NCBI GenBank assembly: GCA_022844225.1
Contig: JALHMC010000015.1
Coordinates: 11,297 to 75,296 of the forward strand
DNA from: Hyphomicrobiaceae bacterium
GTDB taxonomy: Bacteria > Pseudomonadota > Alphaproteobacteria > Rhizobiales > Hyphomicrobiaceae
Direction: 5' to 3'
DNA length: 64,000 bases
Of this stretch, positions 18,173-64,000 are shown piece after piece. The position numbers and the translations under genes are program-made. Under the pieces are notes generated by a model. The model searched no databases. It was not told the DNA's origin and worked only from the letters and a program-made list of their open reading frames with translations. Positions within the stretch are counted from its first letter, which is position 1. Each line of letters begins with the position of its first letter.

Positions 18173-18597
18173 ACATCTCGCTACCCCACGCTTTAGGGTG
18201 CTGCGTATTCGCAAACGTTTCACCCGTGGTTTGTAATTTATTCCCAAGTTTTTCGTTTTAGCCATTTGTTTATTTTTCATACGATCATTGCGAAACATGG
18301 CAATACCCCGCAGGTCATAACGGCTCATGCCAAAACTTTTCCAATAACGACGATTATGATAATGCGCGCCTGCGTGCGTATGCGCGACGGCGCGAGCAGG
18401 TCTAAATCCAACGCCGACAACGCGGCGTAGCCTGGCGTCGGCAAGAATAATTTGAGCGAGACTTCGCGATACATCGCGTGGCGCTACTGCACATCGTTGA
18501 ACATGGCGAACGTTTACAGCCTGACTTGCGATTGATACTTTTATCGAATTGCCGGGCCGTGCTGCGTTCGCCCGTTTCATCTCAAGGAGACAAGCGA

Positions 18598-19971
18598 ATG
18601 CTCGACGGAGAGTTTCCGCCGCGCGGCTCCGGCGTTCCCGGCCGACTGGAATCCCCGCCCTCTGCTGTATGGGCTCATCCATGGACGCTCGGCGCGGGCT
18701 GGGATTGGAAGCCGGGCATGGTGCTGCTTGGATCGCATGAGAAGCGTATCATCGGGTTCGATGACGACCGGCACGTGGTGACCGTTGCGGGCAGCCGCGC
18801 TGGCAAGTCGTCGACCGTGCTGATCCCTAACCTGTTGCGCTATCCGGGCTCGATCGTCGTCCCCGATCCCAAAGGCGAGCTTGCGCTTGCGACAGCAGCG
18901 CAACGAGCCCGAATGGGCCAGCGGGTGATGATCCTCGACCCGTTCAATGTGACGGGGCTGCAAACGGCCTCGCACAATCCAATCGCGGAGCTCGGGCAGG
19001 GGCGGCCCGAGCATGTGGCAGCGGACGCAGCGCAGCTAGCGGACGCGCTCATCGTTTCGAATGCCAAGGACCCGCACTGGACGGACAGCGCCAAGAACCT
19101 GCTGCGGGGAATCGTCCTGCATCTGCTCTCGACGCAGGCGAACGTCACGTTGCGCGAGGTCCGGAGGTACCTCTGCGCAACGCCGCCGGAGCTCAGCGAA
19201 CTGTTTTCGGCAATGACAGAGTCCAATGCCTATGACGGCGTGGTGGCCAATATAGGCGCATCGCTGCTGGGCAAGCTCGAAGCGGGCGGGAGAGAATTGC
19301 AAAGCATTCTCTCGACCGCGCAGGAGCAGACGGCGCCGCTCGATGACATTGTCGGTATGACGGAGACGAGTGATTTCCGGCTGACTGATCTTCGGTCGGG
19401 CAAGCTCACTTTGTACCTGGTGCTGCCGGGTATGCGCATGGGGACGCATTACCGCTGGCTGAGGCTGGTGATCCAGCTGGCGTTGGCCGCGATGGAGCGC
19501 GCACCTGTGCCGCGCGGGCAGCTGCCGGTGTGGTTCGTACTCGAAGAGTTTCCGGCGCTCGGCCACATGCGATCGATCGAGACCGCCGCCGGCCTCATGG
19601 CCGGGTTTGGCGTCAAGCTGTGGAGTGTTCTTCAGGACCTCACACAGCTTCAGACGCACTACCCGAAATCCTGGGAAACGTTCATGGGTAACGCCGGGGT
19701 CGTGCAGGCCTTCGGCAACGCGGACATCACGACGACCGAGCATCTTTCGAAGATGCTTGGGTCGACGCAGGTGATGGAGCGACAGGACATCCGCGTGTCG
19801 GCAAGCGCGATGAGCCAGGGCGACAGTGGACGGCGTGAGCACGTCCGCAATGTCCGCCTGCTCGATGCCAACGAGATCACGCGACACTTCTCGCGCGAGT
19901 CAGGAAGACAGCTGATCCTCGTGCCGGGCCGTCCGCCGATCTATATGCAGCGCCTACAGATCCCGAACTGA
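18598..19971 (+). CDS. VirD4/TraG-like type IV coupling protein ATPase domain, no N-terminal TM segments
   Basis: Walker A is VVTVAGSRAGKSSTVLIPNLL and Walker B-like is VWFVLEEFPALG. AAGGAG SD lies before the ATG at 18598. The N-terminal 70 aa are hydrophilic. Confidence 0.85.
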   Translation: MLDGEFPPRGSGVPGRLESPPSAVWAHPWTLGAGWDWKPGMVLLGSHEKRIIGFDDDRHVVTVAGSRAGKSSTVLIPNLLRYPGSIVVPDPKGELALATAAQRARMGQRVMILDPFNVTGLQTASHNPIAELGQGRPEHVAADAAQLADALIVSNAKDPHWTDSAKNLLRGIVLHLLSTQANVTLREVRRYLCATPPELSELFSAMTESNAYDGVVANIGASLLGKLEAGGRELQSILSTAQEQTAPLDDIVGMTETSDFRLTDLRSGKLTLYLVLPGMRMGTHYRWLRLVIQLALAAMERAPVPRGQLPVWFVLEEFPALGHMRSIETAAGLMAGFGVKLWSVLQDLTQLQTHYPKSWETFMGNAGVVQAFGNADITTTEHLSKMLGSTQVMERQDIRVSASAMSQGDSGRREHVRNVRLLDANEITRHFSRESGRQLILVPGRPPIYMQRLQIPN

Positions 19972-49553: not shown

Positions 49554-51398
49554 CTATTCGGCGGCGTTAACTTGCGTGTCGCCGCCATTGTCGTTGGCAG
49601 CCATACGCAGAGGTTCTGGCAACCACGCCTTGTTTTCCAGAAGTTGCTCGGCACGATCGGCAAGCTCGGACTTCTTTAGCTTTTCAAGAGCAGGCGCATG
49701 CGAGCCGTTGACTTCGTCGATGGCGGCAAGAATCTGCGATCGATTGACCCGGCTGAAATAGCCTTCGGCAGTCGGGCTAAACCATGCTGTCATGTCCAGC
49801 TGCAACGCATCGGCAAGAACGTTCGCGTGCGCTATCCGGCTGTCATCACGAACGCCTTTGCGCTGAATGGCATCGATTGCGGTACCCGCGATATATGCCA
49901 GCAGGTCCAGAAGCTCATCACGAGAGAGCGCCAGCAACCAGTTCCACAACGCTTCCGGATTACCGGGAATGCGATCACCGAAGCATGCCTTCTCCTGCGC
50001 TATGACGGTCAGAGCCTTGCAGAGTTCGGGCTTGGCAATGACGCTCCGGGCGTGTGCCGAACGGACGGACAGCTGAAGGCAGCTCTCCGTGCCGGAACCG
50101 GGATAGAGGACATCGAGTGCAAGGCAGTGTACGACAGACACAATCGCGATGTCAGGTCGGCGCATGAGCTCCGCACCGATTGCAGCGGTTTTCTGGGCGG
50201 TCAGATCCTCGATCAGCCGCGGAGATAACCCCTCGGCAGTCTTTAACGAGCCCGTATTGGGTTCGTCGGATATATCGTCCGATAGAACATCCTCCGGCCT
50301 GACCAGACCACGGTCAACCGATACGGAGCCATCGTGATTCAATGAGATGACAGCTCCTGCGATTGATCGTGTGCAATCCGTCCAGTACTGACCAAGGGCG
50401 TTCAGTTCATCGATTCGCTTCTCGATAACTTCGAGACGGTCGGCACTGCCGTCATCGTCGCTGTCGATGAGCTCGTCGTACTCGGAGCTCAGGCGATCGA
50501 ACTCTGCCTGACGTTCTTCGGTGAGAGGCACGCAGTCGGGGTATTCGCGACCAAACTTGGATAGAACGTCATGGCCCAGCTGGACTGCAATCTCGGTCCA
50601 GAGCCAGCCTTCGGCCGCAATTTCCGCTGCCAAAGGTTTCAGTTTCTCGGCGACCAGTCGATCAAGAAGAACGGAATCCTGCACGAAGGCATCGCTGTCA
50701 TCTCGGAAGAGATCGCGGCGCACATCGCCCCCGGCCGCTTCATAGGCTGGCAGACCGAGGAAACGCACACGCTTGTCAGTCGCACGGACTTCACCCTCGG
50801 TGAGAGCGCGACGCACTGCATGAGCACTGAGATGCCACGACGGGGTTTCAGCGAAGACACGCTGTTGTGCAGCCTGATCGTCCGAGATGGCAAAAGCCTG
50901 AGCGATATCGAGATCGATCTCGCCTTGGCGATAGGCATCGAGGATCACAGGGCTGAGGCGTCCAAGCTTCATGCGTTGAGCAATCAGCTTTTCGGCGACC
51001 CCGAAGCGTGCTGCCACGTCTGCGGTGCTGGAACCGTCATGGATGAGCTTGCTGAAAGCTTCGAACTGGTCCGCCGGGTGCATGGATACCCTGATGACGT
51101 TCTCAGCCAGGCTCAGCTCCGATGGATCGGCATCATTGGATGCCAGAGTGCAATTCACCGGATGGTCGGCTTCGATCAGACCCTGCTTGGCAAGTTGGGA
51201 GAGTGCGAGGAAGCGTCTGCGTCCGGCGATGATCTCGTATTTCCCGCGTTTGCCTTCGCGGATCACGAGGGCCTGCAATTGGCCGTGCGCGACGATCGAT
51301 GCTGCAAGTTCGTCGATGCCGTCTGCGGCCCCGGTTTTGCGGACATTGCCCTTCCAGGGCGTTAGTTTGTTCAAGGCGATAGTGGTGGTGTCAGTCAT
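49554..51398 (-). CDS. parB: large ParB/Spo0J-like N-terminal domain protein (ICE/plasmid type)
   Basis: LNKLTPWKGNVRK ... LAASIVAHGQLQALVI ... YEIIAGRRRFLAL (GxRR box). A ~450-aa C-terminal extension follows. Confidence 0.9.
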   Translation of the reverse strand: MTDTTTIALNKLTPWKGNVRKTGAADGIDELAASIVAHGQLQALVIREGKRGKYEIIAGRRRFLALSQLAKQGLIEADHPVNCTLASNDADPSELSLAENVIRVSMHPADQFEAFSKLIHDGSSTADVAARFGVAEKLIAQRMKLGRLSPVILDAYRQGEIDLDIAQAFAISDDQAAQQRVFAETPSWHLSAHAVRRALTEGEVRATDKRVRFLGLPAYEAAGGDVRRDLFRDDSDAFVQDSVLLDRLVAEKLKPLAAEIAAEGWLWTEIAVQLGHDVLSKFGREYPDCVPLTEERQAEFDRLSSEYDELIDSDDDGSADRLEVIEKRIDELNALGQYWTDCTRSIAGAVISLNHDGSVSVDRGLVRPEDVLSDDISDEPNTGSLKTAEGLSPRLIEDLTAQKTAAIGAELMRRPDIAIVSVVHCLALDVLYPGSGTESCLQLSVRSAHARSVIAKPELCKALTVIAQEKACFGDRIPGNPEALWNWLLALSRDELLDLLAYIAGTAIDAIQRKGVRDDSRIAHANVLADALQLDMTAWFSPTAEGYFSRVNRSQILAAIDEVNGSHAPALEKLKKSELADRAEQLLENKAWLPEPLRMAANDNGGDTQVNAAE

Positions 51399-51477
51399 GA
51401 GTGATCTCCTTTTGTTAGCGGTTTCTCCTGAGAGACGCGAAAAGGAGGGACGGGGGCATAGCTGAAGCGGTCATGCC

Positions 51478-51535
51478 CAACACGGGAGGCCCCAGCTTTG
51501 CGTCGGGGGCCGAATGGAGCGGGCAGGGCATTGAC
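51478..51535 (-). promoter_or_regulatory. conserved 58-nt leader/promoter motif, copy B
   Basis: Plus strand: caacacgggag-[ggcccc agctttgcgtc ggggcc hairpin]-cgaatggagcgggcag-N4-ttgac. It lies 79 nt upstream of the parB ATG. Confidence 0.5.
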
Positions 51536-51670
51536 GGCGAGGCGCACCCGGCCAAGGTCGCGACATCATCGAAGGAAGCCGCAACGGAGAAACGGTGCAA
51601 AGAGTGACCGGGACACTCGCTTGGAGCAACTGCTCTGCCTAGGTTAAATGCTCACCTTGAGGGGGCGCCC

Positions 51671-52138
51671 GTGTCCGACGAAGATCGCATAATGGATGTG
51701 TTGCGACAGGCGAAACGGCTCGCGCAAGAGTATCGCGAACTCACGGGTAAGCCGCTGGGCATAACCGGTGAAGTGGCAGAGTACGAAGCTGCAAAGCATC
51801 TTCGCATCAAGCTCGCACCCGCGCGCCATGCGGGTTACGACGCCACCGATGAGACCACCAGAAGGACATTCCAAATCAAGGGTCGATGTGTGTTGCCAGG
51901 GTGCAAACCGAGCCAGCGTCTCGGCTCGATCGATATCACCAAGGAATTCGACGCTGTGCTTCTGGTGCTGCTCGATAAAGATTTTGACGCGACTCACATC
52001 TACGAAGCCGACAGAGATGCTGTGATTGAGGCTTTGAGCAAACCAGGCTCCAGGGCACGAAATGAGCGCGGCGCAATGAGTGTATCACTGTTCAAAAAAA
52101 TCGGCCGTAAGGTGTGGCAGTGTGAGCAAGTTCGATGA
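51671..52138 (+). CDS. small PD-(D/E)xK-like protein (hypothetical)
   Basis: HAGYDATD...TFQIKGR fits a D...(Q/E)xK nuclease-core pattern. GTG start. Confidence 0.5.
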   Translation: MSDEDRIMDVLRQAKRLAQEYRELTGKPLGITGEVAEYEAAKHLRIKLAPARHAGYDATDETTRRTFQIKGRCVLPGCKPSQRLGSIDITKEFDAVLLVLLDKDFDATHIYEADRDAVIEALSKPGSRARNERGAMSVSLFKKIGRKVWQCEQVR

Positions 52139-52334
52139 CGCGCCAAATAAACTGGTGAGTTTTGCGCCAAATAGCGTGGTGAGCGTCCGCCAAATATCGT
52201 GATCAAATTTGGACAAATATTGTGATTGAAATAGGACACATAGGGTGAGAGTTCACAGCACTCACATCCCGGGACAGTTTCCATAAGAGTGATAATGTAT
52301 CTTATGGAAATTAGCTTAAGCCGTGGTGGCTTCT

Positions 52335-53120
52335 TCAGCTAGCCCGACGTGTTATTCGTTTCCATCCTTTGAGGATGTTCCTGCTCGGAGATTCGTTTTG
52401 AAGCATGGGCAGTATTTGTTCATCCTCATGGTTGCCCGCGTCCGCGCTCCACATCACTACCTTCATCGCGATGGGAAAATCATCGTCCTTCGGCTTGTTG
52501 AGCATCATGCCTGTCAAAGCCTGCAAATTTGTTGAAGGCCGCGACAGATTGAGCAGGAGTAGACGGTCAACGCTCACGCCAAGGATATAAAAGCGATTAT
52601 GCAGCACGAACACATGGCCATGTCGCTCTTGGTGTCTGGGATCACCTTTCGCTAGCCAACGCATGCGCGGACGACTGCACTCGGAGCAAGCGTACATCGT
52701 GGCTTGGTATTTGATGATTTCTTCGGCGTCGTCAGCAAAGCGATAGAGCACGTAATCGCCTTCGAACTCCCGAAATGCGTGGCGGTTGGAAGAACGGGTA
52801 AGTCCCGCCTCGAACTGATCGTAGAAGCTGCAATCTATGCATGGCTCGCTGTAGACCAATTGAAGCGCCGCTAAAAAGAGCTGCTTGGTGTTCTCGTAAG
52901 ACCGCGCCAGTCTCTCCGGCTGGCTTAAAAGCAAAGATATTTGCGATGGGGCCAAACGCTCGTCGAACAGTGACCGCCGGACCTCCGCGAAGGACCAATT
53001 CTTTCTCCTCCGATAGTGTTCGATGTGAAGCGCAACCTTACGCCAGTCGTCCACTGTCTTGGGCGTCCTTGGTGTCGTCGGCGTCGTTAAGCGACGCGAG
53101 GCGTTTTTTTTGCTGGGCAT
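52335..53120 (-). CDS. hypothetical protein with possible N-terminal HTH
   Basis: The WSFAEVRRSLFDERLAPSQISLLLSQ segment is HTH-like. The gene sits in an AT-richer region. Start MPSKKN at 53120. Confidence 0.5.
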   Translation of the reverse strand: MPSKKNASRRLTTPTTPRTPKTVDDWRKVALHIEHYRRRKNWSFAEVRRSLFDERLAPSQISLLLSQPERLARSYENTKQLFLAALQLVYSEPCIDCSFYDQFEAGLTRSSNRHAFREFEGDYVLYRFADDAEEIIKYQATMYACSECSRPRMRWLAKGDPRHQERHGHVFVLHNRFYILGVSVDRLLLLNLSRPSTNLQALTGMMLNKPKDDDFPIAMKVVMWSADAGNHEDEQILPMLQNESPSRNILKGWKRITRRAS

Positions 53121-53303
53121 GATCAAGCTCGGAATTGGCGGTCTTGCGCAGCTTACCCACGATGATCCACATCGAACAGAGTGTTCGATATCGTTGAGTA
53201 CGTTCGCTTTATGCGAGCGTTCAGCGCTACATCGCTCATGGACAGCATAAATTTCGTAGGGAAAAATTCGATCACGGGGGCGCAACAGAGAAAGGAAAGC
53301 TCG

Positions 53304-53498
53304 ATGTCAAAGCGTAATGACTCCAATGCCCACGTCGTACACACGACCACCTACAAAGAGAATCTGTCTCCCTACTCAACATTCGCCGGCAATCGCAGAG
53401 CCGAGGTGGTGTTGAGCGACGGACGGACCGGGTGGGACAACGGACGGAATGACACGCAGGCAATTGCCAAGGCCATTCGGCACGCGCGTTCAAAGTAA
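53304..53498 (+). CDS. small hypothetical protein
   Basis: 64-aa ORF with an AGAAAGGAAAG SD-like sequence upstream. Confidence 0.3.
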   Translation: MSKRNDSNAHVVHTTTYKENLSPYSTFAGNRRAEVVLSDGRTGWDNGRNDTQAIAKAIRHARSK

Positions 53499-53659
53499 AG
53501 CACGGCAGCGGGTAATGTGAAGAGGGGTGGGGCTTTGCCCTGCCCCTCTTTCAGTCCGATATTGGTCACGAAGCGAGTTCCTGATTGCCCATAAGGGCAT
53601 AATTTTACAGAGCAAAAAGCATATTTGATATGTAGACGGAATAATGATACATTGTATGT

Positions 53660-53914
53660 ATGCGAGTTGAAACGAATTCAGAGCCTGAAACAAGAAAACG
53701 GCCCGTCACCGTGACGGTGCGCGCTGACCTGCTTGAAGAAGTTAGGACGCTCGAACTCAATGCCTCCCAGGCTGCCGAAGACGGCATGAAAGCCGCTGTT
53801 AAGCGCGCCAAGGAACAAGCATGGCTGACAGAGAGCGCAGATGCCATCCAGGCCTACAATGAGCGCATCGCGGCATCGGGCATGCTTCTCACCCCTTCAT
53901 GGCTACAGGGCTAG
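53660..53914 (+). CDS. ccdA: CcdA-family antitoxin
   Basis: KRPVTVTVRADLLEEVRTLELNASQAAEDGM...AWLTESADAIQAYNERIAASG parallels F-plasmid CcdA. An atacat-tgt-atgtat inverted repeat overlaps the start codon. Confidence 0.85.
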   Translation: MRVETNSEPETRKRPVTVTVRADLLEEVRTLELNASQAAEDGMKAAVKRAKEQAWLTESADAIQAYNERIAASGMLLTPSWLQG

Positions 53915-54217
53915 ATGGCCCGGTTCGACGTCTATGAATTAAGCGGCGCCGGTCTTCTGGTCGTCGACGTTCAGGCCGATCTCCTGTCTCGTCTCGACAG
54001 CCGTGTGGTTGTGCCGCTTCTACCGGCAGAACAGGCTGGGTCGCAGGCAATGCCGCGTCTCGTTCCATTGATCAGGCTCAACGGCTCGGAGTACCGGCTG
54101 ATGACACCTGATATATCCGGTGTGTCGGCAGCCAATCTGAAGACGAGCGTGGGTACCGTCGCGGACCAGCATCACGTCGTCGTCGATGCGATTGATTTCA
54201 TGATGCAGGGATTCTGA
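53915..54217 (+). CDS. ccdB: CcdB-family toxin
   Basis: MARFDVYE...LVVDVQADLLSRLDSRVVVPLLP...YRLMTPDISGVSAANL...VVDAIDFMMQGF parallels F CcdB. It starts directly after the ccdA stop. Confidence 0.85.
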   Translation: MARFDVYELSGAGLLVVDVQADLLSRLDSRVVVPLLPAEQAGSQAMPRLVPLIRLNGSEYRLMTPDISGVSAANLKTSVGTVADQHHVVVDAIDFMMQGF

Positions 54218-54220
54218 GAA

Positions 54221-55003
54221 TTAGTCTTCGCGCTCGATTTCTTCAGAAGCCTTACCCCGCGTTATTGGATTGACCGCTCGCAGCTCCTTAAGGCCAACGC
54301 TTGCATACCCCTCCAGGAGACTTAGAAGCTCGCGATATCCCGTGGCCGATCGGATGTCGGTAGGCAACTGAATGCCGTGTTCCTCCATCTTAGACACATC
54401 GAACGGCAAAACTGGATAAGGCGTATCGTTGACCATGCGAATGTATGGAGAGAACGGAACCAGCATGAGACCGCAAAAGAGGTACTTATTATAGACAGCA
54501 TCATACGCGGCCCTCTCGCGCTCGTCGTTCAGCTGACTGTAGCCCGGTCGGCCGAGAGGCTCGTAGTATGTGTTGATATTTCCTATCGCCTCTTCGAGTG
54601 ACCAAATCCGTTTCCGTATCCATTTTGCAAAATAGGCATGTTGAAACTCTTCGAAGGTTGCAAGGTCGATGTTCGTAGCCTGAGCGGCTTCCTTGGCCCC
54701 GCTCTGAAAACCCGCCTTGGATATGATGTATCCTCGATGCGCACCCGTTTCGAGAATGACGGTCCGAAATGAATGAACTACAGCTTTCGGTATTGCTGCC
54801 GCCCAATTCTTGCACTCGCAAATTATTGTGTGCCTGATGCCGTCGATTGTGTCGTGAGCGAGGACATCAACATCGACAGAGCCTCTCGGCAGGGTCAGCG
54901 AAGCTTGACGCAGAACCGTCATGCCGCATTCCTCAAGGATCGCGGCAACAACTTCTTCAAGATCCTGCCACGTGGCTGGTTGCGCGCTCGTGATCAGCGT
55001 CAT
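54221..55003 (-). CDS. Mrr-like (PD-(D/E)xK) restriction endonuclease domain protein with unknown C-terminal domain
   Basis: WQDLEEVVAAILEECGM ... GSVDVDVLAHD ... IICECKNW ... RGYIISKAGFQSGA (D...ExK core). Confidence 0.8.
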   Translation of the reverse strand: MTLITSAQPATWQDLEEVVAAILEECGMTVLRQASLTLPRGSVDVDVLAHDTIDGIRHTIICECKNWAAAIPKAVVHSFRTVILETGAHRGYIISKAGFQSGAKEAAQATNIDLATFEEFQHAYFAKWIRKRIWSLEEAIGNINTYYEPLGRPGYSQLNDERERAAYDAVYNKYLFCGLMLVPFSPYIRMVNDTPYPVLPFDVSKMEEHGIQLPTDIRSATGYRELLSLLEGYASVGLKELRAVNPITRGKASEEIERED

Positions 55004-55007
55004 GGCG

Positions 55008-55994
55008 TCAGCGGCCGTCTTCAGGATCGTCTACCTCGCCAAGAATTTCCTCAGCGCCAGAGACGAAGAAATGGTGCTCGGTATTTTTGTTGAGGTAAGT
55101 GATCAGGTCGGCGCGCGCGCCTGCGATGGTCTGATAATATTGCCGGAACGCCTGCGATACCTCTTTTGCCCTCTTAGCGTTCGGCGGGATCGGAATTTCG
55201 ATCTCCAAGTATCGTTTCCCCACATCCTCTCGGTTGGTTTGCATGAAAACGACGCGACGCCACTGGTCGCGAACGACCTTTAAGGTCAGAGCCCACAGTA
55301 GATAGAACGGATCAAAATGAGCCGTCACACCCGGTCGGATGATGATGACTTCCTTGGTCGTGACGACCTGCTCTTGCCCAGGCAAGAGAATACAAAAATC
55401 GCCAATGTTCTTTGATGTGCGCTCGGGGCAGAGCAAGTCAAACGCGCGAAGCCCCGAGCTTTCGCCTTTCCAAAAATACTTAGCGACTGAGCGAGGCACT
55501 CTGTTCGTCGGATTGATGTTGACGAGCCCCGCGCGCAAATCAGAAACCTTGATGTAAGGCACTTCACCTATGCGTTGGTCTTGCGATGGCGAGCCGTGAC
55601 CTCCGCGAATGGTGATCAAACCTTCGTCGCACAGCTCGCCGAGCGTCGAGAAGGTAAAGCCCTTGAACTCCTTGGTTGCCATTGCTGCGCGGAACTGCTT
55701 GCCGTAACGCCGGTCGTAATAGACTGGAACAGCACACCGTATATTGACATCCGCTTTGGGTAAGAAGGTGAGAGTGTCAGTCCGCTTCCCCTTAGCTAGA
55801 GCCTTGGCATCCTCAAGAAGCTGGTCGTTGACGGCGTCTACCAATCCCTGAGTTTCAGGGTCCTTGACCTGTTTGCGCTTGCCAGTGGCGGGATCAATGA
55901 TCGGCAGAAGCCGGCCGCCTTTCGAGAGCCCGCATGTCGGTGCGGTCGATACCATGATTGTTTCTTCGGAAAACCAGGACGGCTTGGCAATCAT
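55008..55994 (-). CDS. target-recognition (HsdS/BcgIB-like) specificity subunit
   Basis: TRD-like segments present (LGELCDEGLITIRGGHG...YIKVSDL ; IIRPGVTAHFDPFYLLWAL). The start overlaps the stop of the upstream methylase gene by 1 nt. Confidence 0.65.
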   Translation of the reverse strand: MIAKPSWFSEETIMVSTAPTCGLSKGGRLLPIIDPATGKRKQVKDPETQGLVDAVNDQLLEDAKALAKGKRTDTLTFLPKADVNIRCAVPVYYDRRYGKQFRAAMATKEFKGFTFSTLGELCDEGLITIRGGHGSPSQDQRIGEVPYIKVSDLRAGLVNINPTNRVPRSVAKYFWKGESSGLRAFDLLCPERTSKNIGDFCILLPGQEQVVTTKEVIIIRPGVTAHFDPFYLLWALTLKVVRDQWRRVVFMQTNREDVGKRYLEIEIPIPPNAKRAKEVSQAFRQYYQTIAGARADLITYLNKNTEHHFFVSGAEEILGEVDDPEDGR

Positions 55995-57691
55995 CAGCTT
56001 CTGCCTTTCTTTGTCCGACCCGTTTTCTTCGATGGCTGTTTGGCCTCGGCTGACGACTCCTCGCCGATCTTCTCAAATATGTAGAAGTTCGTCTTTGCGC
56101 GGCAGAATTCTTCGAACGCTTCCATCGGGATGTTCAGCATTCCCCTAAGCGCATAGCGGGGCTGGAGCCACTCGGCCAGCCATCGGTAAGAGAAGCTGAA
56201 GAAGTACGTCTCTGGCAAAACAATGCCGACACGTCCGCCGACACGAAGCAAGCGGTGTGCGAGTTCGAGGTAGACGAGGCCAATCTCTAGATCCGAAAAA
56301 TCCGTAGGACCTTTCATCGCTGCGGCAGTAGAGATTGTGTACTTCGCTGCACGGCAGTCAGCAGCTTTGACCTTTAGATTCTCTCCGAAAGGCGGATTGG
56401 TAATCACGACGGTGAACTGCGCATACCCGAGCGGAGCGTCTAGCGTCGTAAGTTCGTGACTGAGCTGCGGATACTTGGCGGCCCACTGATCGCTACGGAT
56501 GGCGTCACCAAGCAGGACATGGGTAGAGCCGTCCTGCATGGCCACCATGATCGCACGCGTGAGCTTGACACCAATATCGTCCTTATCGATGCCGTACAGG
56601 TTATCGTTGGCCCACTTGACCCTGTTCCAGACCTCAGAATCGTCCGGGAATTCCTTATCGGCGACCTGACGGAGAGCCTCGATCAGAAATGCTCCGGTGC
56701 CGCATGCAGGATCGATGACCTTGTCTTCGGATGTTATCTCCATGGCCATCAGTGCCGGCCGCACAATTCTGAGCGGTGTCAGGTATTGCCCCTCCCCACT
56801 CTTGAGAGCGCTTGTTCGAAAAATCTGAAAGGCTTTGGCGAGCAAATCGACGTGGTCGCCAAGTATGCGCAACGGTGCAAGCTCCGCTACGACCGCGAAG
56901 ATGGTTTCGTCGCTGAGGAACAGACGTTCCTGATCCGAGGCTAGGAAAATTCGAGTGCGTTGCTTTTCAAAGTAGTCTTTGAACATGTCGCGCAGGCGCG
57001 TTGCGGTCACTTCAATTTTATTATCGCTATTTCCGTAGATTCTGAACGCGACGGGCTTGGCCTGATTGGCAGAGCGGCTGGCGATGGCATCGCTTTCCAG
57101 TTTGACAAGCAGGACATGAAGCAGCTCGCGAAGCTGATCCTCTCGCCTGGTAACGTTCGGGTCCGACACCACCACGGTTGCGACGAGCCGTTTGAGTGCG
57201 CCAGTCAGCTCAACTTCAGTAGGAATTCGAAGCGATTTCCACGACGGAGGAGCCTTCGGAGGTTGGGTGAGGTCATCCGTTGGGCTTGGCAAGCCAGGGT
57301 TCTCGACGAACACCCAATCAGCGCCGTGGCGCTTGTAGACAGCAAGGCTCTGCTCTCCGTTCGTCCAATAGCCGAGCTTGGCCATTGGCTCGTTGCTCAG
57401 ATATCGCATGAGCTGAGCGCGACCCTTGGTGATATCTGGCGCCTTGAACTCAAATATTACGCTGAGCGCATACCATTCACCGCTCGCGTCAGCAAAAGCG
57501 ACAAGGTCAGCTGAACCGCAGGTATCGTATTTCTGGCCGCGTTCACGCTTGGTCAGATCGTGAGGGGTGTCTGGGACAGGCCATTCCGGCTTCCATCGCA
57601 GCTGGTTTTCACGCCAGCCGAGCTTAAGCAGCCTCGCGATGACAGCTTGGCGTACGCGTTCTTCCGGCTTCATGGAGGGTGTATCAAGCAT
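55994..57691 (-). CDS. fusion of HsdR_N-type PD-(D/E)xK nuclease domain and gamma-class N6-adenine DNA methyltransferase (BcgIA / type IIB-IIG-like)
   Basis: N-terminus: RVRQAVIARLLKLGW ... GSADLVAF ... VIFEFKAPD. MTase motif I is VIDPACGTGAFL and motif IV is VVITNPPFG. Confidence 0.85.
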   Translation of the reverse strand: MLDTPSMKPEERVRQAVIARLLKLGWRENQLRWKPEWPVPDTPHDLTKRERGQKYDTCGSADLVAFADASGEWYALSVIFEFKAPDITKGRAQLMRYLSNEPMAKLGYWTNGEQSLAVYKRHGADWVFVENPGLPSPTDDLTQPPKAPPSWKSLRIPTEVELTGALKRLVATVVVSDPNVTRREDQLRELLHVLLVKLESDAIASRSANQAKPVAFRIYGNSDNKIEVTATRLRDMFKDYFEKQRTRIFLASDQERLFLSDETIFAVVAELAPLRILGDHVDLLAKAFQIFRTSALKSGEGQYLTPLRIVRPALMAMEITSEDKVIDPACGTGAFLIEALRQVADKEFPDDSEVWNRVKWANDNLYGIDKDDIGVKLTRAIMVAMQDGSTHVLLGDAIRSDQWAAKYPQLSHELTTLDAPLGYAQFTVVITNPPFGENLKVKAADCRAAKYTISTAAAMKGPTDFSDLEIGLVYLELAHRLLRVGGRVGIVLPETYFFSFSYRWLAEWLQPRYALRGMLNIPMEAFEEFCRAKTNFYIFEKIGEESSAEAKQPSKKTGRTKKGRS

Positions 57692-57798
57692 GGGGTTTTG
57701 GACCAGAAAAAGGAGCTACTCACTTTATGGAGCACGATTACCAGCTAGCATAAAAGTGAGCTACTCCCTTTTTCAGTTTCATCCCCAGCATTGTGTCC

Positions 57799-58299
57799 TC
57801 AGGCTGGCTTAGCTTTCGGCGCTGCCTTCGAAGACGATGCTAGATCAAGCTCCAAAGCCTTCGCCCTGCGGTCCATCACTTGAGCGGGCGTCGCGGATGA
57901 GAGGATAGCCCCTGCCCTCGTCTCGACCTTGGCGCGGAATGTCTGCGCCAGCGTGTAGTCCTCACCCTTCAGACGTTCAGCGTCTTCCTTGGTGAAAGCT
58001 TCGGCGGCGGTGATGTTGACGGCCGGCGCGAACCGCTCGCCACCGAGATTGACGAGCCCGACACCCTGCTCCTTAAAGGCATCAAGGGTTTCGCGGCCAA
58101 GCTTGGAGGTCTTATCGGCAAACTCGATGCGAATGTTAATGCGCTCGGGATCGATCTCGATGCCCTTGCTTTCTTTCAGGCTGTCCTTGGCCTTCGCCTT
58201 GTCCTCTGCGGACATAGGACGGATGAGGCGAACGGTGTCGATCGGTACCGTGCGCGTGACGCCTTCATGCGTTGTGTACTTCAATGAGTTTGTAGCCAT
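57799..58299 (-). CDS. hypothetical protein with Lys/Ala-rich tail
   Basis: 166-aa ORF from MATNSLKYTTHEG. GAAAGGGAAATGATC precedes the ATG. Confidence 0.55.
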   Translation of the reverse strand: MATNSLKYTTHEGVTRTVPIDTVRLIRPMSAEDKAKAKDSLKESKGIEIDPERINIRIEFADKTSKLGRETLDAFKEQGVGLVNLGGERFAPAVNITAAEAFTKEDAERLKGEDYTLAQTFRAKVETRAGAILSSATPAQVMDRRAKALELDLASSSKAAPKAKPA

Positions 58300-58533
58300 G
58301 ATCATTTCCCTTTCAGAATGTGGGAACAATCATCGTCTGCTTAAAGATGAAGTCACGCTGCATAGCAGCAAGAGTTCTGGAAACAACTTCGTTCGACACC
58401 GAAGCTACCCGCAAGGGATCGAAGCCGAACGGCGGAAACCCGCATTTTCCGGGGTTCCGTTCACGAGAGCCCGGTCGGCTTTCGCCGATGCGGCCAATCT
58501 GTCCTGCGAATCGGGATACGATTTCCAAACCCA

Positions 58534-61500
58534 TTGCAAGGAAAGTGCGTTGTGCCGGACATCAGTGCCGTCGAAATCCCCAAACCTCTCAACTGGCAGG
58601 ACTTCCAACGGTCCAGTGTCGTCCTGTTCCGCTGCGTGCTCGGCGACGAGAGCGTTCAGGAATTTGGGCGCGAAGGACAGACGCAGCACGGAATCGATCT
58701 TCTGGGTTACCGCAACGCCGATACCTCTCGTCCGGTTGATATCCAGTGCCGTCGTATCAAGAAGCCACTGACCGAAGACAAGATGCGCAGCGACGCCGAA
58801 GAGGCGCGCGCCATCAAGCCCGCACTAACGGAACTGATATTCGCAACGACCGCAGAACGCGATAAGTCGCTCCAGTTGGCGGCCGCCAAACTGACCGAAG
58901 AACTTAAGGCTTCCGGATGGAACTGCCGTGTCACCGTGATGTCATGGCCCGACCTGCAGCACGACATCGCGCAGCATCCCCGGGCGCTGCGGGCATTCTG
59001 GCCTGCAATGGCTGCCAACGATGCGCCGGTCATTGCAGTCGTCAGGGAAAGCTCAGCCAACGTCTCGGCAAAACTCGACGAACAGATGACGCTTATCCGC
59101 GAGATGAGCGAAAAACTCTCGCGCTCTGCATCGGCAGTGACTGAGGAATACGAAGCCGATCTGGCGCCAGAGGTGAAGCAGGAACCGGCGGGTCTGCACG
59201 GCAGACTTTCAGAAATCAGGAAGCTTATCGCGAAAGGTAAGACCAAGACCGCCCTCGAATCCTTCAAGGAAATCGAACGCGAAACGCTTCCGCCATATGC
59301 CAAATACAGGGTGATCGCCAATATCGGAGCGATCCACTTCAACGCTGGCCGCAATGATGAAGCGCTAGACTATTTTCGTCAGGCGCTCGCGCTTCGTCCG
59401 GACGATCCGAAGGCGGTGATCAACCTCGCCTACGCGGAGTTGGTGGGCGGCGACATTGAAGGCGCACGAGCTCGCGGCCTGGCCGTCCTTGAGAAGCAAC
59501 CGGATCATGCCGGAGCCGCGAGCCTTGTTATCCAGTCGCATCGAAACGATTCCGCGCTGAACGATCCGTTCGCGCTCGTGCCGCAGGCATCGCACGAGGC
59601 GGCCGAGGTATTGACCGCTGCAATCGTATTCTTGCGCGCTCGGGACGACCTCTCGTGGTTCGACGTTGCCAAGAACGCCGCTGCCAAATATCCGAACGAT
59701 CGTCACCTTGTCCGCTTTGGCGCGGAAGCAGTGCTGGAGCCTGCTCTGGCCGATCGCGAAGTCATGTTCGGAAAGCAGATCGATTCTGCCGTACTGGAAG
59801 CGGTTGGAAAGAGCGCAGCCAAACTTCGTGACCTTTGGCGCCGCGAGATGGACATGGAGGATGTTCGCAGCGAAGAGGCCTGCCCGCTCGCGAACAATGC
59901 CGCTGGGGCTCTCCGCTTCATAGGAGATGACGAGGGTGCTGCGCGTGTCCTCGACGAAACGCTGGCAAAGGTCGGCCAAGACGCGGGCTTGGTGAGAGCG
60001 CGCGCACTGCTCTACCTGCATGCGGACGAAGACCGGAAGGCAGCAGACCTCCTGGAATCGGTCGACGATCCCGAAGGCACCCTGTTCCTCGCGCAGCTAA
60101 CGGCGGCGAAGGAACCGGCGAGAGCCCGTACAGCGCTCGGGCGACTGAAACCCGATCAATTGCCGAAGCATATGCGGGTCATTATTCCCGAAGTGCAGGG
60201 TGAAATCGCACTCGCGGAGAAAGATAAGTCTGCCGTCGCTGACGTGCTGAAGGAGCTCGAAGCGCAGGGAGCGCCATTCCCGACGATCGCAATTTTGCGC
60301 GCGCGGGCAGCCGAGGAAGGCTTGATCGAGGTCCCGGCACGGGGCGAGGAAGACGACGACGCGGAGGATGGTCTTCAGCCCGCGATTGCAGAGATTGTCA
60401 GTCAGTTGCCGTCTCACGAGGCAGCACTCAGCTTTGCTGACCGGGTGCAACTGGCCCAGTTCCTGGAACGGCACAATGCCGATGAAACGGCATCGAACCT
60501 GCTGCACGGCCGCGTCGATCCCAGTCGTGACAGCGTAAGCCTTCGCACATACCTTGGAGCCAGCATTGGGGCCCAGCTGTTTGCCAGATCGCGCGCAGTT
60601 CTCGCAGCCTTGCCCCCTGCCCTTCTCGATCTTCCCACCTATGCAAGGATGGCCGCTACGTATCACTGGAACATTGGCGACGCCAAATCAGCCGAACCGT
60701 TTGTGGCGCGGTTGAGTGCGGAATCCCCGCTACGTCTCGATCTGCTGCTTTGGAACATCGATGCGCTGATCCGCATGAACGCCGAAGATCGTGTCAGGAA
60801 CATCCTCAAGGCACCGGTCGAGACTACCGCAGACGGTACGCTAGCCGATAAACGGCGCCTGGTCTCAGCCCTGACATCCTACGGCCAGCCCGAACGCGCA
60901 CGCGCTCTCGCATACCGAATGTTCGCGCTGAACCGGGACGATCCGGGCGCCTGGATGACGTTCATGGGTACGATGCTCACGGGCGAGCCTACCGATCGCG
61001 ATCATATCCTCGATCCGGTCATTGGGCCGGATCACGCCTTCGAGATCCGCCTGGCGACCGGTGAGGCGCGCCGGTATGTGCTGGAAAGCGATCCCGACGT
61101 GCGCCGGGTGCTACCTGACGCCCTGGCGCCTGACCACGATATTGCAAAGCTCCTTCAGGGCCTGAAGGCAGACGACACGTTCGCGTGGCCTAGCGACGGC
61201 AGCACCGCGATCGTTACCGTCGCCAAACACAAATTCCTGGATGCTTTCCACCTGGCGATCGGTCGGTTCAACGACCGCTTCCCTACGGCGAAAGGTTTCA
61301 GGCAGGTCAATGTCGGTACGGCCGAAAATTTCGATATCAGCGCCATCGAGAAGATGCTTCGGGAACGATCGGAGCATATCCAGGCCCAGACCAAACAATA
61401 TGAAGACGGCAAGATTTCCCTCGCGATGCTGGCGCATCTCTGCGGCGTCGACCCGATCGATACGATGCTCGGGCTTGCTGAGCTCGGAAGTACCTACCGG

Positions 61501-62472
61501 GTATCCATCGGTTCGAGGGAGGAGCGGGACGGAACGGCCGCGCATGTAAAGGCTCACAAGGCTGCCGGCTGCATCGTCGATGCGGCCACCTATCACTGCA
61601 TCCGGCGGCTCGGCCTCGAAGAGGCAGTGAAGGCTGTGTGCGGACCTATCGGCATCACGCAGGCAACTGCCGACATTTATCATGCGCGTGTGCAGTCGCT
61701 CGACGTTGCGGGCGGCGAGCCCAAAGGCAGCATGGCCATGCGCAACGGCCAGATGCAGATGATCGAATATTCTCCAGAGCAGATGGCGAAGACGAGGCTC
61801 GTCGTTGAAGGCGATCGTGATTGGCTTGCACAGAATGCCGAAGTGATACCGGCAATACCGAAGACCGATCCGCCTTTGGCGATGCGGCGTCTGGCGGTCG
61901 TTCCCGGCGCTCGCTTTTTCGACGACGTGTTTGCTGCGAGCGGGTCGTCGCGGTTGCTGCTGGCAGACGATTTGTTCACCCGCCAGGTGGGTTACGCACT
62001 TGGCGTCCGCTCGACCTCGCTTCAGCCGGTGCTCATGATCGCGCGAGAACGCGGTATCCTCTCTCCGACCGCATATGCGAAGGCAATTACCGATCTCATC
62101 GACATCGGGCAGCGATCCATCGGTATAGACGCTGCCGGGCTGCTTGCGGCCCGCATGCTCGACATGGAAAACGATGAGCCCCGCGTTGGCAAACGTCTCA
62201 CCTTGGCGGCCAAAGTTCTCGGCGGTCCCGCCTGCGATCCTGCTTCACACTGCAGCGTTGTCGCCGAGTTCATTCAGCTGCTCTGGAAAATGGATTCCTT
62301 CAGCCTCGATGATTTTGCCGTCATCTCTCATGTCTTAACGGCAGTGCTGCGCGATCGAACCGAAGACTATCGGGAGATGCTTCAGAGGATCGATCAGCAT
62401 CTGTCTGGAAACAACGAAGCCCGCCGCTATTTGCGCGCCTGGTCACGAGGCCATTTTCTGCAGTGGCCGTAA
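58534..62472 (+). CDS. 1312-aa protein: N-terminal Mrr-like nuclease-fold domain, long TPR array, large unassigned (possibly PIN-like) C-terminal domain
   Basis: The N-terminus EGQTQHGIDLLGY...VDIQCRR follows the Mrr pattern GIDG...vQcK but with Arg replacing Lys. TPRs are present (NIGAIHFNAGRNDEALDYFRQALALRPDDPKAVINLAYAEL...). The C-terminus has GCIVDAATYHCI and LLLADDLF segments. Confidence 0.8.
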   Translation: MQGKCVVPDISAVEIPKPLNWQDFQRSSVVLFRCVLGDESVQEFGREGQTQHGIDLLGYRNADTSRPVDIQCRRIKKPLTEDKMRSDAEEARAIKPALTELIFATTAERDKSLQLAAAKLTEELKASGWNCRVTVMSWPDLQHDIAQHPRALRAFWPAMAANDAPVIAVVRESSANVSAKLDEQMTLIREMSEKLSRSASAVTEEYEADLAPEVKQEPAGLHGRLSEIRKLIAKGKTKTALESFKEIERETLPPYAKYRVIANIGAIHFNAGRNDEALDYFRQALALRPDDPKAVINLAYAELVGGDIEGARARGLAVLEKQPDHAGAASLVIQSHRNDSALNDPFALVPQASHEAAEVLTAAIVFLRARDDLSWFDVAKNAAAKYPNDRHLVRFGAEAVLEPALADREVMFGKQIDSAVLEAVGKSAAKLRDLWRREMDMEDVRSEEACPLANNAAGALRFIGDDEGAARVLDETLAKVGQDAGLVRARALLYLHADEDRKAADLLESVDDPEGTLFLAQLTAAKEPARARTALGRLKPDQLPKHMRVIIPEVQGEIALAEKDKSAVADVLKELEAQGAPFPTIAILRARAAEEGLIEVPARGEEDDDAEDGLQPAIAEIVSQLPSHEAALSFADRVQLAQFLERHNADETASNLLHGRVDPSRDSVSLRTYLGASIGAQLFARSRAVLAALPPALLDLPTYARMAATYHWNIGDAKSAEPFVARLSAESPLRLDLLLWNIDALIRMNAEDRVRNILKAPVETTADGTLADKRRLVSALTSYGQPERARALAYRMFALNRDDPGAWMTFMGTMLTGEPTDRDHILDPVIGPDHAFEIRLATGEARRYVLESDPDVRRVLPDALAPDHDIAKLLQGLKADDTFAWPSDGSTAIVTVAKHKFLDAFHLAIGRFNDRFPTAKGFRQVNVGTAENFDISAIEKMLRERSEHIQAQTKQYEDGKISLAMLAHLCGVDPIDTMLGLAELGSTYRVSIGSREERDGTAAHVKAHKAAGCIVDAATYHCIRRLGLEEAVKAVCGPIGITQATADIYHARVQSLDVAGGEPKGSMAMRNGQMQMIEYSPEQMAKTRLVVEGDRDWLAQNAEVIPAIPKTDPPLAMRRLAVVPGARFFDDVFAASGSSRLLLADDLFTRQVGYALGVRSTSLQPVLMIARERGILSPTAYAKAITDLIDIGQRSIGIDAAGLLAARMLDMENDEPRVGKRLTLAAKVLGGPACDPASHCSVVAEFIQLLWKMDSFSLDDFAVISHVLTAVLRDRTEDYREMLQRIDQHLSGNNEARRYLRAWSRGHFLQWP

Positions 62473-62581
62473 GTTGAAATGCGGCGTGTGGCCGGCAAGC
62501 CGAAGGGCTATTCAACCGCGCCCTCCGCCATCGTCTTAGCCGGGTGCAAACCACCAAGACTCCAGGACACCATCTGGGGGC

Positions 62582-62821
62582 CTAGCAGGCTCTGATCAGA
62601 TAAGCTGCGTGTTTGCCTTGATACTCGATGGCTAGGTCAACCTGACCGCCCTCGCCCAGGCTGACTGTCGTATGCAGCGTCAAAGTCTTCCTATGCGCTA
62701 ATTCCATATCGATGACGGCGCGCGCCGCATCCGCAAGGCATTCATAGGTCTGTACGGGCTCGAAGATGCCCAGGCCATTCTTGCGAAAGAGCTCCCACTG
62801 TTCGGCGATCGGTTCACTCAT
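62582..62821 (-). CDS. small hypothetical protein
   Basis: 79-aa ORF whose start overlaps the stop of the upstream gene by 8 nt (operon with parA). Confidence 0.45.
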   Translation of the reverse strand: MSEPIAEQWELFRKNGLGIFEPVQTYECLADAARAVIDMELAHRKTLTLHTTVSLGEGGQVDLAIEYQGKHAAYLIRAC

Positions 62822-63182
62822 TGCTGACCCGGTCCCGGCGTCCGTCCTCGATCATGTCGGCGTTGCGAATCTCGAACCCTTCCGCCTTCAGCGAAGTCAT
62901 GATGACGTGCTTGATGGTGGTGCCGCGATGGAAAGCTCTCAGCTTCAGCTCCCTCCAGACATAGTCCGGGATTTCGATGCTGAAGTTCTTCATGTGGGCG
63001 CGCGGTGTCGGAATGGATTCCGGATCGACCTTCGGCTCGGCCTTAAGAGCGACCCTGCCCCCCTCGCCCGCCTGGTCGGACGGTTTGACCATGGTGGCGA
63101 CGCCCTTCTCTTCGGCCAGTCGTTCAAGGCGGCTGTCGATATCGGCATCAAGGGCGAGAAACGGTTTGCGGCTATTATTCAT
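62814..63182 (-). CDS. ParG-like ribbon-helix-helix partition/centromere-binding protein candidate
   Basis: Begins 1 nt after the parA stop codon. The C-terminus FSIEIPDYVWRELKLRAFHRGTTIKHVIMTSL fits a beta-strand plus two helices. Confidence 0.5.
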   Translation of the reverse strand: MNNSRKPFLALDADIDSRLERLAEEKGVATMVKPSDQAGEGGRVALKAEPKVDPESIPTPRAHMKNFSIEIPDYVWRELKLRAFHRGTTIKHVIMTSLKAEGFEIRNADMIEDGRRDRVSNE

Positions 63183-63183
63183 G

Positions 63184-63852
63184 TCAGCCTGCCTTGCGCA
63201 GTTCGTCGGCGTCCGTTGCAACGATGGCAGTAATCTCAGCGAGCAACGCCCGCACTTCGGCCCCTGCCCCTTTTTCGCGCTCGGTCAGTGTTGGCGGCTG
63301 GCCGTTGAGGAACATCTCCTTATAGGCCGAGCGCTCGACGAGCGCGGTGCGGAACAGCGGTAGCCCATGGCGCTCCAGTTCCTCGTAGGCGAAGTCGGTG
63401 ACGCGCGAGCGTAAGGGGAACACCTTGGTCAGCAGCAGCCGGTACGGGATCGGCCTCCCCGTCTCCTCGCGCACGTCGCGAATATCGCTGACGACTACCA
63501 GTGCCTCGCGCAAATCCGGCTCGGAGGCCTGTGCCGGGATCACGACCAGGTCCGATCTGGCCAGCACCTTGAACATCGTGGTTTCGCGCGTGCCTGGCAG
63601 GTCGATGCAGATGTGATCGAATTCGCCGCTCATGGCCTGCTTGCGATAGAACTCCCCGAACGCCTTCGACTCGATGGCGACAACAGTGAGCCCGTCGAGC
63701 GGCGCCTTGCGCGCCCATCGCTCAAGGGTCTTGTTCTGATCGAGATCGATAAGCAGGACGCGGCTGCCCTGCAGGGCCAGCTCGGATGCGATGGCGGCGC
63801 ATGTGGTGGACTTACCGACCCCGCCTTTCGAAGACGCAAAACTGATGATCAT
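63184..63852 (-). CDS. parA: ParA-family partition ATPase
   Basis: Deviant Walker A: MIISFASSKGGVGKSTT. Also LIDLDQNKTL and DLVVIPAQASEPDL. The start was chosen at 63852. Confidence 0.9.
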   Translation of the reverse strand: MIISFASSKGGVGKSTTCAAIASELALQGSRVLLIDLDQNKTLERWARKAPLDGLTVVAIESKAFGEFYRKQAMSGEFDHICIDLPGTRETTMFKVLARSDLVVIPAQASEPDLREALVVVSDIRDVREETGRPIPYRLLLTKVFPLRSRVTDFAYEELERHGLPLFRTALVERSAYKEMFLNGQPPTLTEREKGAGAEVRALLAEITAIVATDADELRKAG

Positions 63853-64000
63853 ACAAAACTCCACGCACAGAACGGTTCGACACATCGGCCTTTGATCGGG
63901 CCTGCTTGTTCGATGGTGCCAGATTCGTTCAGTCCACCAAGCCACCACATGCGGGGCTGGTTGCTCCGGCAGGAGTCCAAGCCTCCAGAACACCAAGTCA

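Follow-up and report, generated by a model that had tools for sequence, protein, structure and literature searches.

Does a single large gene, lying beside restriction-modification (R-M), toxin-antitoxin and partition genes, encode a defence system of its own and, if so, of which kind? This question is raised by positions 58534-62472 (plus strand) of a 64,000-nucleotide stretch of DNA from a Hyphomicrobiaceae bacterium (GenBank assembly GCA_022844225.1, contig JALHMC010000015.1, positions 11,297 to 75,296 of the forward strand), the whole of which is referred to here as the window. An initial annotation, made from the sequence alone, had seen in this gene a candidate single-gene defence protein whose architecture it could match to no named system. 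We find that the encoded protein is composed, in this order, of an Mrr-like restriction endonuclease (REase) domain, tetratricopeptide (TPR)/helical repeats, a GreA/B-C fold, a PF20698 PIN domain and a helical tail. This domain set and the defence and mobile context support the reading as a single-gene defence protein, and the architecture does have a name, that of the TPR–GreA/B-C–PIN (TGP) system. On balance, we regard the window protein as a probable REase-headed, stand-alone TGP conflict system borne on a conjugative or mobilisable element, with a mechanism that we infer. Residue numbers are counted throughout from the TTG at 58534.

Domain architecture of the window protein

The C-terminal part of the protein carries the assignment. 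Pfam family PF20698, described as 'PIN domain associated with the TPR-GreAB-C-PIN system', matches residues 1014-1154 (E=7e-17), its score of 62.4 bits lying well above the cutoff of 27.8. A structural model of residues 800-1312, calculated from an alignment of 25 homologues (mean predicted local distance difference test score, pLDDT, 83.4), was compared with the PDB using Foldseek, and its PIN region matched PIN/VapC structures with probabilities of 0.9-0.99 (1v8o and 1v8p [PAE2754], 1y82, 5h4g [VapC4] and 2mdt). The segments GCIVDAAT (D1016) and LLLADDLF (D1145/D1146), in which PIN-type acidic strands had been suspected from the start, both fall within the PF20698 match and on conserved PIN acidic positions. 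Among 60 representatives less than 50% identical to each other, D1016 is retained in 58, D1047 in 47, D1130 in 55, D/E1145 in 58, D1146 in 59 and R1150 in 59, and in the model the acidic positions lie where the core strands end. As judged from these aligned sequences, the conservation pattern is that of an active PIN nuclease.

Upstream of the PIN domain, the same model reveals a GreA/GreB C-terminal-type domain, with pLDDT of ~81-90 over most of its length. Foldseek matched it to GreA, GreB, Gfh1 and Rnk with a probability of 1.00, mostly at ~3 Å root-mean-square deviation over 74-90 columns (9a7t_B, 2pn0, 2p4v, 1grj, 2etn, 3aoh and 3bmb). For both the GreA/B-C and the PIN matches, the Foldseek E-values reach only 0.02-0.4, modest figures that reflect how little of the 513-residue query each domain makes up. 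By profile comparison with hhalign, residues 815-915 align in register with residues 85-158 of E. coli GreA, its complete C-terminal domain, with E=1.6e-4; a profile search of the PDB returned 1grj as one of only two matches, at an E-value (0.6) below significance. The N-terminal coiled-coil of Gre factors is absent: in the model, TPR repeats precede the GreA/B-C domain, and linker helices and the PIN domain come after it. The C-terminal stretch of about 400 residues that the initial annotation had left unassigned as one domain thus resolves into a GreA/B-C domain, a helical linker, a PIN domain and a helical tail. The overlooked GreA/B-C domain matters because it is the basis of the published model of RNA polymerase docking.

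The TPR-like repeats recognised earlier are confirmed by Pfam, in a region that spans about 600 residues instead of the ~450 first estimated. TPR_19 matches residues 259-332 with E=3e-12, along with TPR_1, TPR_2, TPR_14 and TPR_16, and weak TPR_14 and TPR_19 matches recur at residues 715-808; the remainder of the region is presumed to be composed of repeats from its conservation with homologues that carry TPR calls. The linker between head and repeats, helical in the model, has the lowest mean pairwise identity of all segments (38%), and the linker between the GreA/B-C and PIN domains contains invariant residues that include R945, Y956, G959 and S962.

The tail that follows the PIN domain lies outside the Pfam PIN model, and residues 1176-1312 gave no structural or profile match. 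It is nevertheless modelled with pLDDT of ~82-95 over most of its length, falling to ~59 at the last residues, and several of its residues are kept in divergent representatives (W1303 in 57 of 59, G1306 in 53, H1307 in 52 and S1238 in 47); H1239 is also conserved. This conserved tail, together with the head subfamily described below, is the only point at which our analysis goes beyond the literature consulted.

A search of 5.8 billion proteins returned ~31 homologue clusters that are 45-96% identical and span the protein wholly or for the greater part, and the full-length homologues are conserved along the whole of the window protein. This end-to-end conservation indicates that the gene is real and under selection, far beyond chance. 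The unbroken reading frame of 1,312 residues from the first TTG therefore stands as first described, with the exception of its start: residue 7 is the first residue in 24 full-length homologues (MPDIS/VPDIS) and an AAGGA lies 9 nt upstream of the GTG at 58552, so that translation probably begins at this GTG and yields a product of 1,306 residues. Around the gene, a promoter/terminator scan detected nothing promoter-like, and terminator-like sites were fewer than the shuffle expectation. In the databases, the homologues are labelled 'hypothetical', 'TPR repeat protein', 'cellulose synthase operon protein C' or 'TadD'.

A Q25/R73 subfamily of Mrr-like head domains

The two motifs in which the Mrr/PD-(D/E)xK pattern had been recognised, QHGIDLLGY (D55) and VDIQCRR (Q71, R73), both lie inside the N-terminal domain, and scans of orthologues bear out this recognition. 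Mrr_cat (PF04471) was matched by 16 of 20 orthologous heads at E<=10 and Mrr_cat_2 by 4. An orthologue that has Lys at position 73 (K-form) and is 58% identical in the head scored 27.0 bits across profile positions 4-99 of 115, above the Mrr_cat cutoff of 21, whereas copies with Arg at this position (R-form) did not match Mrr_cat. The secondary structure predicted for the head follows the alpha/beta order of restriction endonucleases and is compatible with an alpha-beta-beta-beta-alpha-beta core, and the helix-1 F(E/Q)R, G-[IV]-D and [IV]-Q-C-[KR] motifs and a later Glu are conserved across the head family. A PDB sequence-profile search with the N-terminal profile gave chance-level matches only, and hhalign produced no meaningful alignment of this profile with the neighbouring Mrr_cat protein (54221-55003), for which a single-sequence template is too weak. 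Mrr-like identity is accordingly accepted, from sequence, at the level of the family, with the window's own copy lacking both a profile match and the canonical Lys.

A profile search of 1.84 billion representatives identified 3,631 relatives of the head domain at E<=1e-3, and residue counts were made on the top 147 of these. D55, Q71 and C72 are present in 145 apiece, E100 is found in 139, and all four are invariant inside the group that, like the window protein, has Gln at position 25 and Arg at position 73 (Q/R). In the window protein, D55 and Q71 of the PD-(D/E)xK triad are present and the Lys position is R73, leaving the triad incomplete, as had been noticed at the outset along with the doubt that this casts on activity. 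When the window protein is aligned with 24 close homologues, position 73 is Arg in 19 and Lys in 6 of the 25 sequences, and the 147 representatives have Lys in 97 and Arg in 48.

The states at positions 25 and 73 go together, with combined counts of 90 for E/K, 46 for Q/R, 7 for Q/K and 1 for E/R; the corresponding Fisher p=6e-29 overstates this link. In a neighbour-joining tree built without columns 25 and 73, only 3 (E/Q) and 5 (K/R) changes are needed, compared to ~38 after shuffling. Repeated co-evolution of the two positions was rejected on this count of 3-5 changes, and the small number of changes indicates that Q25/R73 is a subfamily signature arising from few old events. Within these alignments, the replacement of Glu25 by Gln and of Lys73 by Arg together define a conserved subfamily of the head domain. 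Both the Q/R and the E/K states are found in TGP and in NACHT-headed proteins.

Simple decay of the Q/R form is argued against by the invariance of the other site residues and by the interchange of Lys and Arg among close relatives. The Q25/R73 head might be functionally distinct, through altered chemistry or by binding nucleic acid without cutting it, with the PIN domain as sole executioner; we consider this suggestion unlikely. If it were true, the head would be a sensor or assembly module, and the effector position of such immune proteins would have to be read differently.

The wider company of the head is informative in this respect. At least 1,200 residues are present in 64 of the 147 representatives, and hidden Markov models (HMMs) built from our own alignment detect the PIN region in 58 and the GreA/B-C region in 50 of these 64. 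The other long proteins with this head are STAND (signal transduction ATPases with numerous domains) nucleoside triphosphatases (NTPases) of NACHT or NB-ARC type, some of them with C-terminal TPRs (P0061, P0099, P0129, P0072 and P0071). In a Planctomycetota locus (L015, 9995-12982), the head of a 995-residue protein is followed by a P-loop segment, NACHT-like by sequence reading alone. The head thus occupies the effector position of proteins resembling nucleotide-binding leucine-rich-repeat receptors (NLR-like), which supports an effector reading of the head of the window protein. One further relative, P0035, carries on the same scaffold a different N-terminal sequence, PD-(D/E)xK-like by eye, that neither the N-terminal HMM nor Pfam could place.

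Relationship to known systems

The TGP systems were described computationally as conflict systems with a constant, fast-evolving core of TPR, GreA/B-C and PIN domains, the last of which had previously gone undetected (Kaur, Iyer, Burroughs and Aravind, eLife 2021; PMC8195603). Their N-terminus is EAD10 or one of 13 effector domains that include REase, HNH, PNPase, TIR, SIR2 and peptidases, and their genes mostly stand alone (PMC8195603). The window protein has the PF20698 PIN domain, the GreA/B-C domain, the upstream TPRs, a REase-like head, REase being among the listed options, and few conserved neighbours. The source table of the same study holds ~450 REase+TPR+GreAB-C+PIN proteins, some of whose family entries are named 'GreA/GreB family elongation factor', and it lists WP_102155042.1 of Tsuneonella flava, with 1,270 aa (PMC8195603). 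Our scan of species-representative genomes recovered in T. flava (L011) a full-length homologue of the window protein (28% identity over residues 11-1206, E=2e-97), whose open reading frame (ORF) has exactly 1,270 aa and encodes an E/K-form head; it agrees with the table entry in species and length, and the family has therefore already been catalogued.

With these REase-headed TGP proteins the window protein shares the domain order, a similar length (~1,270-1,380 aa), a stand-alone gene and a patchy taxonomy. No difference in architecture separates them; what sets the window protein apart is its Q25/R73 head and its position on a conjugative element, and its identity to annotated copies from plasmids or genomes is only 24-30%.

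The one TGP protein that has been studied experimentally is Agp of the Bab/Agp system of E. coli ECOR25, which protects against T5 by abortive infection (Ibarlosa et al., bioRxiv 10.1101/2024.11.07.622273). Agp bears an N-terminal amyloid motif (BASS11) and, upon T5 infection, templates the adjacent pore-former Bab; the substitution S628L in its GreA/B-C domain abolishes T5-induced BASS11 assembly (bioRxiv 10.1101/2024.11.07.622273). By its published description, Agp has the same TPR–GreA/B-C–PIN core as the window protein. Agp has the BASS11 motif and needs the adjacent Bab executioner, whereas the window protein has a globular REase-like head and is without a conserved partner gene. No BASS11/Bell partner was seen in the window, where the N-terminus is a 150-aa globular domain and Pfam matches none of the flanking ORFs (176, 79 and 135 aa), no dedicated Bell/BASS model having been run; a search for an Agp-like protein with the divergent GreC-PIN core alignment returned 11 close fragments only.

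The very same head family, with profile E-values of 1e-35 to 1e-41, heads NACHT/NB-ARC proteins with C-terminal repeats among the NLR-like or Avs-type STAND proteins. These resemble the window protein in the logic of an effector head joined to a sensor-repeat body; unlike them, the window protein has GreA/B-C and PIN domains in place of the NTPase switch module, and no NACHT/NB-ARC or other NTPase family is present among its Pfam and NCBIfam matches. With type IV Mrr enzymes (Mrr_cat, PF04471) the head has in common the motifs and, as predicted, the order of secondary structure elements, but it has Arg for Lys and Gln for Glu, lacks an Mrr-type DNA-recognition domain and is fused to a large sensor body. 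GreA, GreB, Gfh1 and Rnk share the C-terminal globular fold, and the N-terminal coiled-coil that is inserted into the channel is absent from the window protein.

TGP proteins are of interest as a widespread predicted immune class with a single experimental test so far, whose proposed trick would be to watch RNA polymerase through a Gre-factor docking domain. The window protein opens no new category; the family is already catalogued computationally and its experimental precedent is distant only. Being compact, encoded by one plasmid-borne gene and equipped with an intact PIN site, the protein lends itself reasonably well to such a test, and 1,300-aa genes of this kind can now be named in annotation.

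Distribution and neighbourhoods of homologues

Homologues are distributed sporadically and patchily across phyla. Searches with tblastn located them on 21 plasmid records, of which 15 carry a copy close to full length, spanning at least 80% of the query, and 17 of the 21 records are predicted to be conjugative or mobilisable. Many other homologues lie on large contigs or chromosomes, among them a 5.7-Mb gammaproteobacterial chromosome, and phage records contained no homologue apart from one head-only match.

In the 22 loci compared, the ORFs that flank the gene in the window are not conserved beside the homologues. The neighbourhoods share nothing with the window or with one another, yet they are rich in defence and mobile genes, such as DpnII-type R-M, HNH and polymorphic-toxin nucleases, an AAA_13 ATPase, caspase-like and NB-ARC/WD40 proteins, recombinases and a resolvase. 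On Mesorhizobium plasmid pB2-1-1 the neighbours are a restriction endonuclease, a TIR protein, a cyclase with ThiF and JAB genes, RES-Xre, VapC and an integrase, and on Methylobacterium plasmid pMOC1 they are a recombinase and insertion sequence (IS) elements. Such variable mobile and defence contexts without shared neighbours fit a stand-alone system that travels with mobile DNA, and the window protein type has no conserved partner gene.

Three individual loci merit mention. On pB2-1-1 (L023, 7198-11876), a RES-family NAD+ phosphorylase gene ends on the very base at which the TGP homologue begins, an arrangement that suggests co-transcription with the RES gene and has no counterpart in the window. 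Two adjacent short pieces of the 176-aa ORF that neighbours the gene in the window (27 and 22 aa, 78-86% identity, joint E=2e-14) occur at 7843-7982 in L019 and L020, ~2 kb upstream of the TGP homologue; they may be a remnant and do not amount to a conserved partner. In Bradyrhizobium mercantei (L017, 9740-10213), a short ORF, whose continuation is disrupted in frame, contains only a fragment of the head, and this is probably a decayed copy.

Proposed mechanism and alternative explanations

In the published model, the GreA/B-C domain engages the beta-prime coiled-coil at the secondary channel of virus-hijacked polymerases, the extruded transcript is cleaved by the PIN domain, and the N-terminal effector is released should PIN cleavage fail (PMC8195603). 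Applied to the window protein, this would have its GreA/B-C domain dock on the rim of RNA polymerase's secondary channel, as in GreA, GreB and Gfh1, with the Gre coiled-coil that reaches the polymerase active site absent from the docked protein. The TPR region would sense an infection-associated state, for instance a polymerase taken over or modified by an invader, whereupon the PIN domain would cleave transcripts at or near the polymerase. The REase-like head would serve as a second, harsher effector that acts on DNA upon activation or oligomerisation, and either abortive infection or the disappearance of the invading element would result. Nuclease-headed STAND (Avs) proteins are switched on by oligomerisation, which provides the analogy for the head. 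These mechanistic details, which follow Kaur et al. (2021) and rest on analogy, could be right or wrong with about equal chances.

Several observations weigh against the assignment of the window protein as a REase-headed TGP effector system. The first 207 residues of the window protein itself have no Pfam match, even at E<=10, and the head model has a pLDDT of 63.5 overall and below 50 at model residues 30-64, the putative catalytic hairpin. The structural comparison by domain that the initial annotation had advised, which was productive for the GreA/B-C and PIN domains, gave for this low-confidence head model a best match only to EcoO109I, at E=0.17; with pLDDT below 50 over the putative catalytic hairpin, the result is uninformative either way. 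Nuclease activity of the head is uncertain, as read from its sequence, because Arg stands in for the canonical Lys and Gln for the Glu of helix 1. RNA polymerase binding is predicted from a modelled fold for which sequence support is weak and Foldseek E-values are modest. Bab/Agp is the sole experiment on the class, and none exists on any REase-headed TGP; Agp showed no activity without Bab (bioRxiv 10.1101/2024.11.07.622273), so that a first-line role of the PIN domain is unproven even in the only relative that has been tested. The PADLOC run that had likewise been advised returned nothing significant for the window protein, with a 2023 set of models that apparently has no TGP model.

The same uncertainty about the head leads to a variant in which the TGP scaffold is retained and the Q25/R73 head is a non-nuclease module for DNA binding, sensing or oligomerisation, the PIN domain being the only catalytic effector. 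The Arg and Gln replacements in the window protein, the failure of R-form heads against Mrr_cat where a K-form copy passes, and the precedent of Pfam families of inactive NACHT-associated REase domains (e.g. PF22722) speak for this variant. D55, Q71, C72 and E100 nonetheless stay invariant in the Q/R group, the heads of the orthologues scanned match none of the inactive-REase Pfam models, and the finding of both Lys and Arg at position 73 in close orthologues (19 R, 6 K) points to selection for a positive charge there, which is compatible with catalysis. We regard a non-nuclease head as unlikely. A service to the plasmid itself, by post-segregational killing or by exclusion of competing plasmids or conjugative elements instead of anti-phage immunity, would suit a protein encoded on a conjugative or mobilisable element with CcdAB and partition genes, whose homologues occur on 21 plasmid records, mostly mobilisable or conjugative replicons, where RES and VapC toxin-antitoxin systems lie beside them, and PIN domains are typical toxin modules. 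We hold this to be quite improbable in view of the absence of any antitoxin-like partner conserved beside the gene, the many homologues on large contigs or chromosomes, a 1,300-aa multidomain build with sensor repeats that is atypical of addiction modules, and the anti-phage function of the sole tested relative (Bab/Agp).

That the GreA/B-C fold adjoins a ribonuclease domain, and that some family entries are named after elongation factors, could also be taken to indicate a housekeeping factor for transcription or RNA quality control, which would perform Gre-like cleavage of stalled transcripts in normal growth. Such a role is very improbable for a family with a sporadic distribution across phyla and variable, mobile neighbourhoods, with an N-terminal domain common to NLR-like proteins, and without the Gre N-terminal coiled-coil needed to stimulate transcript cleavage. 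Finally, the gene might be one component of a multi-gene system with the adjacent Mrr_cat/S-like/methyltransferase cluster (54221-57691), from which it is separated by a single 176-aa ORF. This closeness is all that recommends an arrangement that we find hardly credible: the cluster is on the opposite strand, the neighbourhoods of homologues are entirely different, and the cluster genes are absent beside the homologues in the 22 loci, save for a weak methyltransferase match 8.5 kb upstream in L004. A functional link of the gene to the adjacent R-M cluster or to ccdAB was rejected, since none of those genes accompanies the homologues in the loci compared.

Genetic context in the window

The restriction system, ccdAB and partition genes beside which the gene had been placed were all located (Table 1). 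A relaxase and a VirD4/TraG coupling protein show that the window belongs to a conjugative or mobilisable element, of which a megablast of positions 50000-64000 found no close relative in PLSDB.

Table 1. Positions of the gene, of the domains of its product and of further genes located in the window.
Feature	Residues	Position	Strand	Basis
Likely ribosome-binding site AAGGA		58538..58542	+	consensus inference only; 9 nt upstream of GTG 58552
Coding sequence, likely product 1,306 aa		58552..62472	+	ORF list, homologue starts, GTG with upstream sequence
Mrr-type restriction-endonuclease-like domain, Q25/D55/Q71-x-R73/E100 form	7-160	58552..59013	+	orthologue Mrr_cat matches, conserved motif columns
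Poorly conserved helical linker	161-214	59014..59175	+	helical in model
TPR/helical-repeat region, presumed sensor/scaffold	215-825	59176..61008	+	Pfam TPRs and conservation with TPR-annotated homologues
GreA/GreB C-terminal-type domain	~826-905	61009..61248	+	model and Foldseek, hhalign
Helical linker, GreA/B-C to PIN	906-1005	61249..61548	+	helices in model
PIN nuclease domain, PF20698 type, beta-hairpin insert at ~1065-1078	1006-1175	61549..62058	+	Pfam and Foldseek
Conserved C-terminal helical tail	1176-1312	62059..62469	+	model helices, residue conservation
MobA/VirD2 relaxase		16202-17761		
VirD4/TraG coupling protein		18478-19971		
ParB		49554-51398		
CcdA/CcdB		53660-54217		
Mrr_cat endonuclease (260 aa), half-size type I S-like specificity protein (328 aa), N6-adenine methyltransferase (565 aa)		54221-57691	-	
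ParA/VirC1		63184-63996		

Other genes of the window are of potential interest. Divergent from the TGP gene lies the 176-aa ORF mentioned above (57799-58329, minus strand), which has no Pfam match, and the 565-aa methyltransferase of the adjacent cluster matches both type I and type II methyltransferase models. Near ParB, a 155-aa protein (51671-52138, plus strand; Pfam DUF6998) matches the PADLOC model 'type II methyl-directed restriction enzyme' with E=4e-42 and may be another stand-alone defence gene. Between this gene and ccdAB is a 316-aa ORF (52335-53285, minus strand) with no Pfam or PADLOC match, in the region of lowest G+C of the window (about 52-54%). At the other end, a 518-aa AAA_13 ATPase (2888-4444, minus strand; E=1e-11), a type of ATPase frequent in defence pairs, is followed downstream by an overlapping 331-aa ORF (2158-3153, minus strand).

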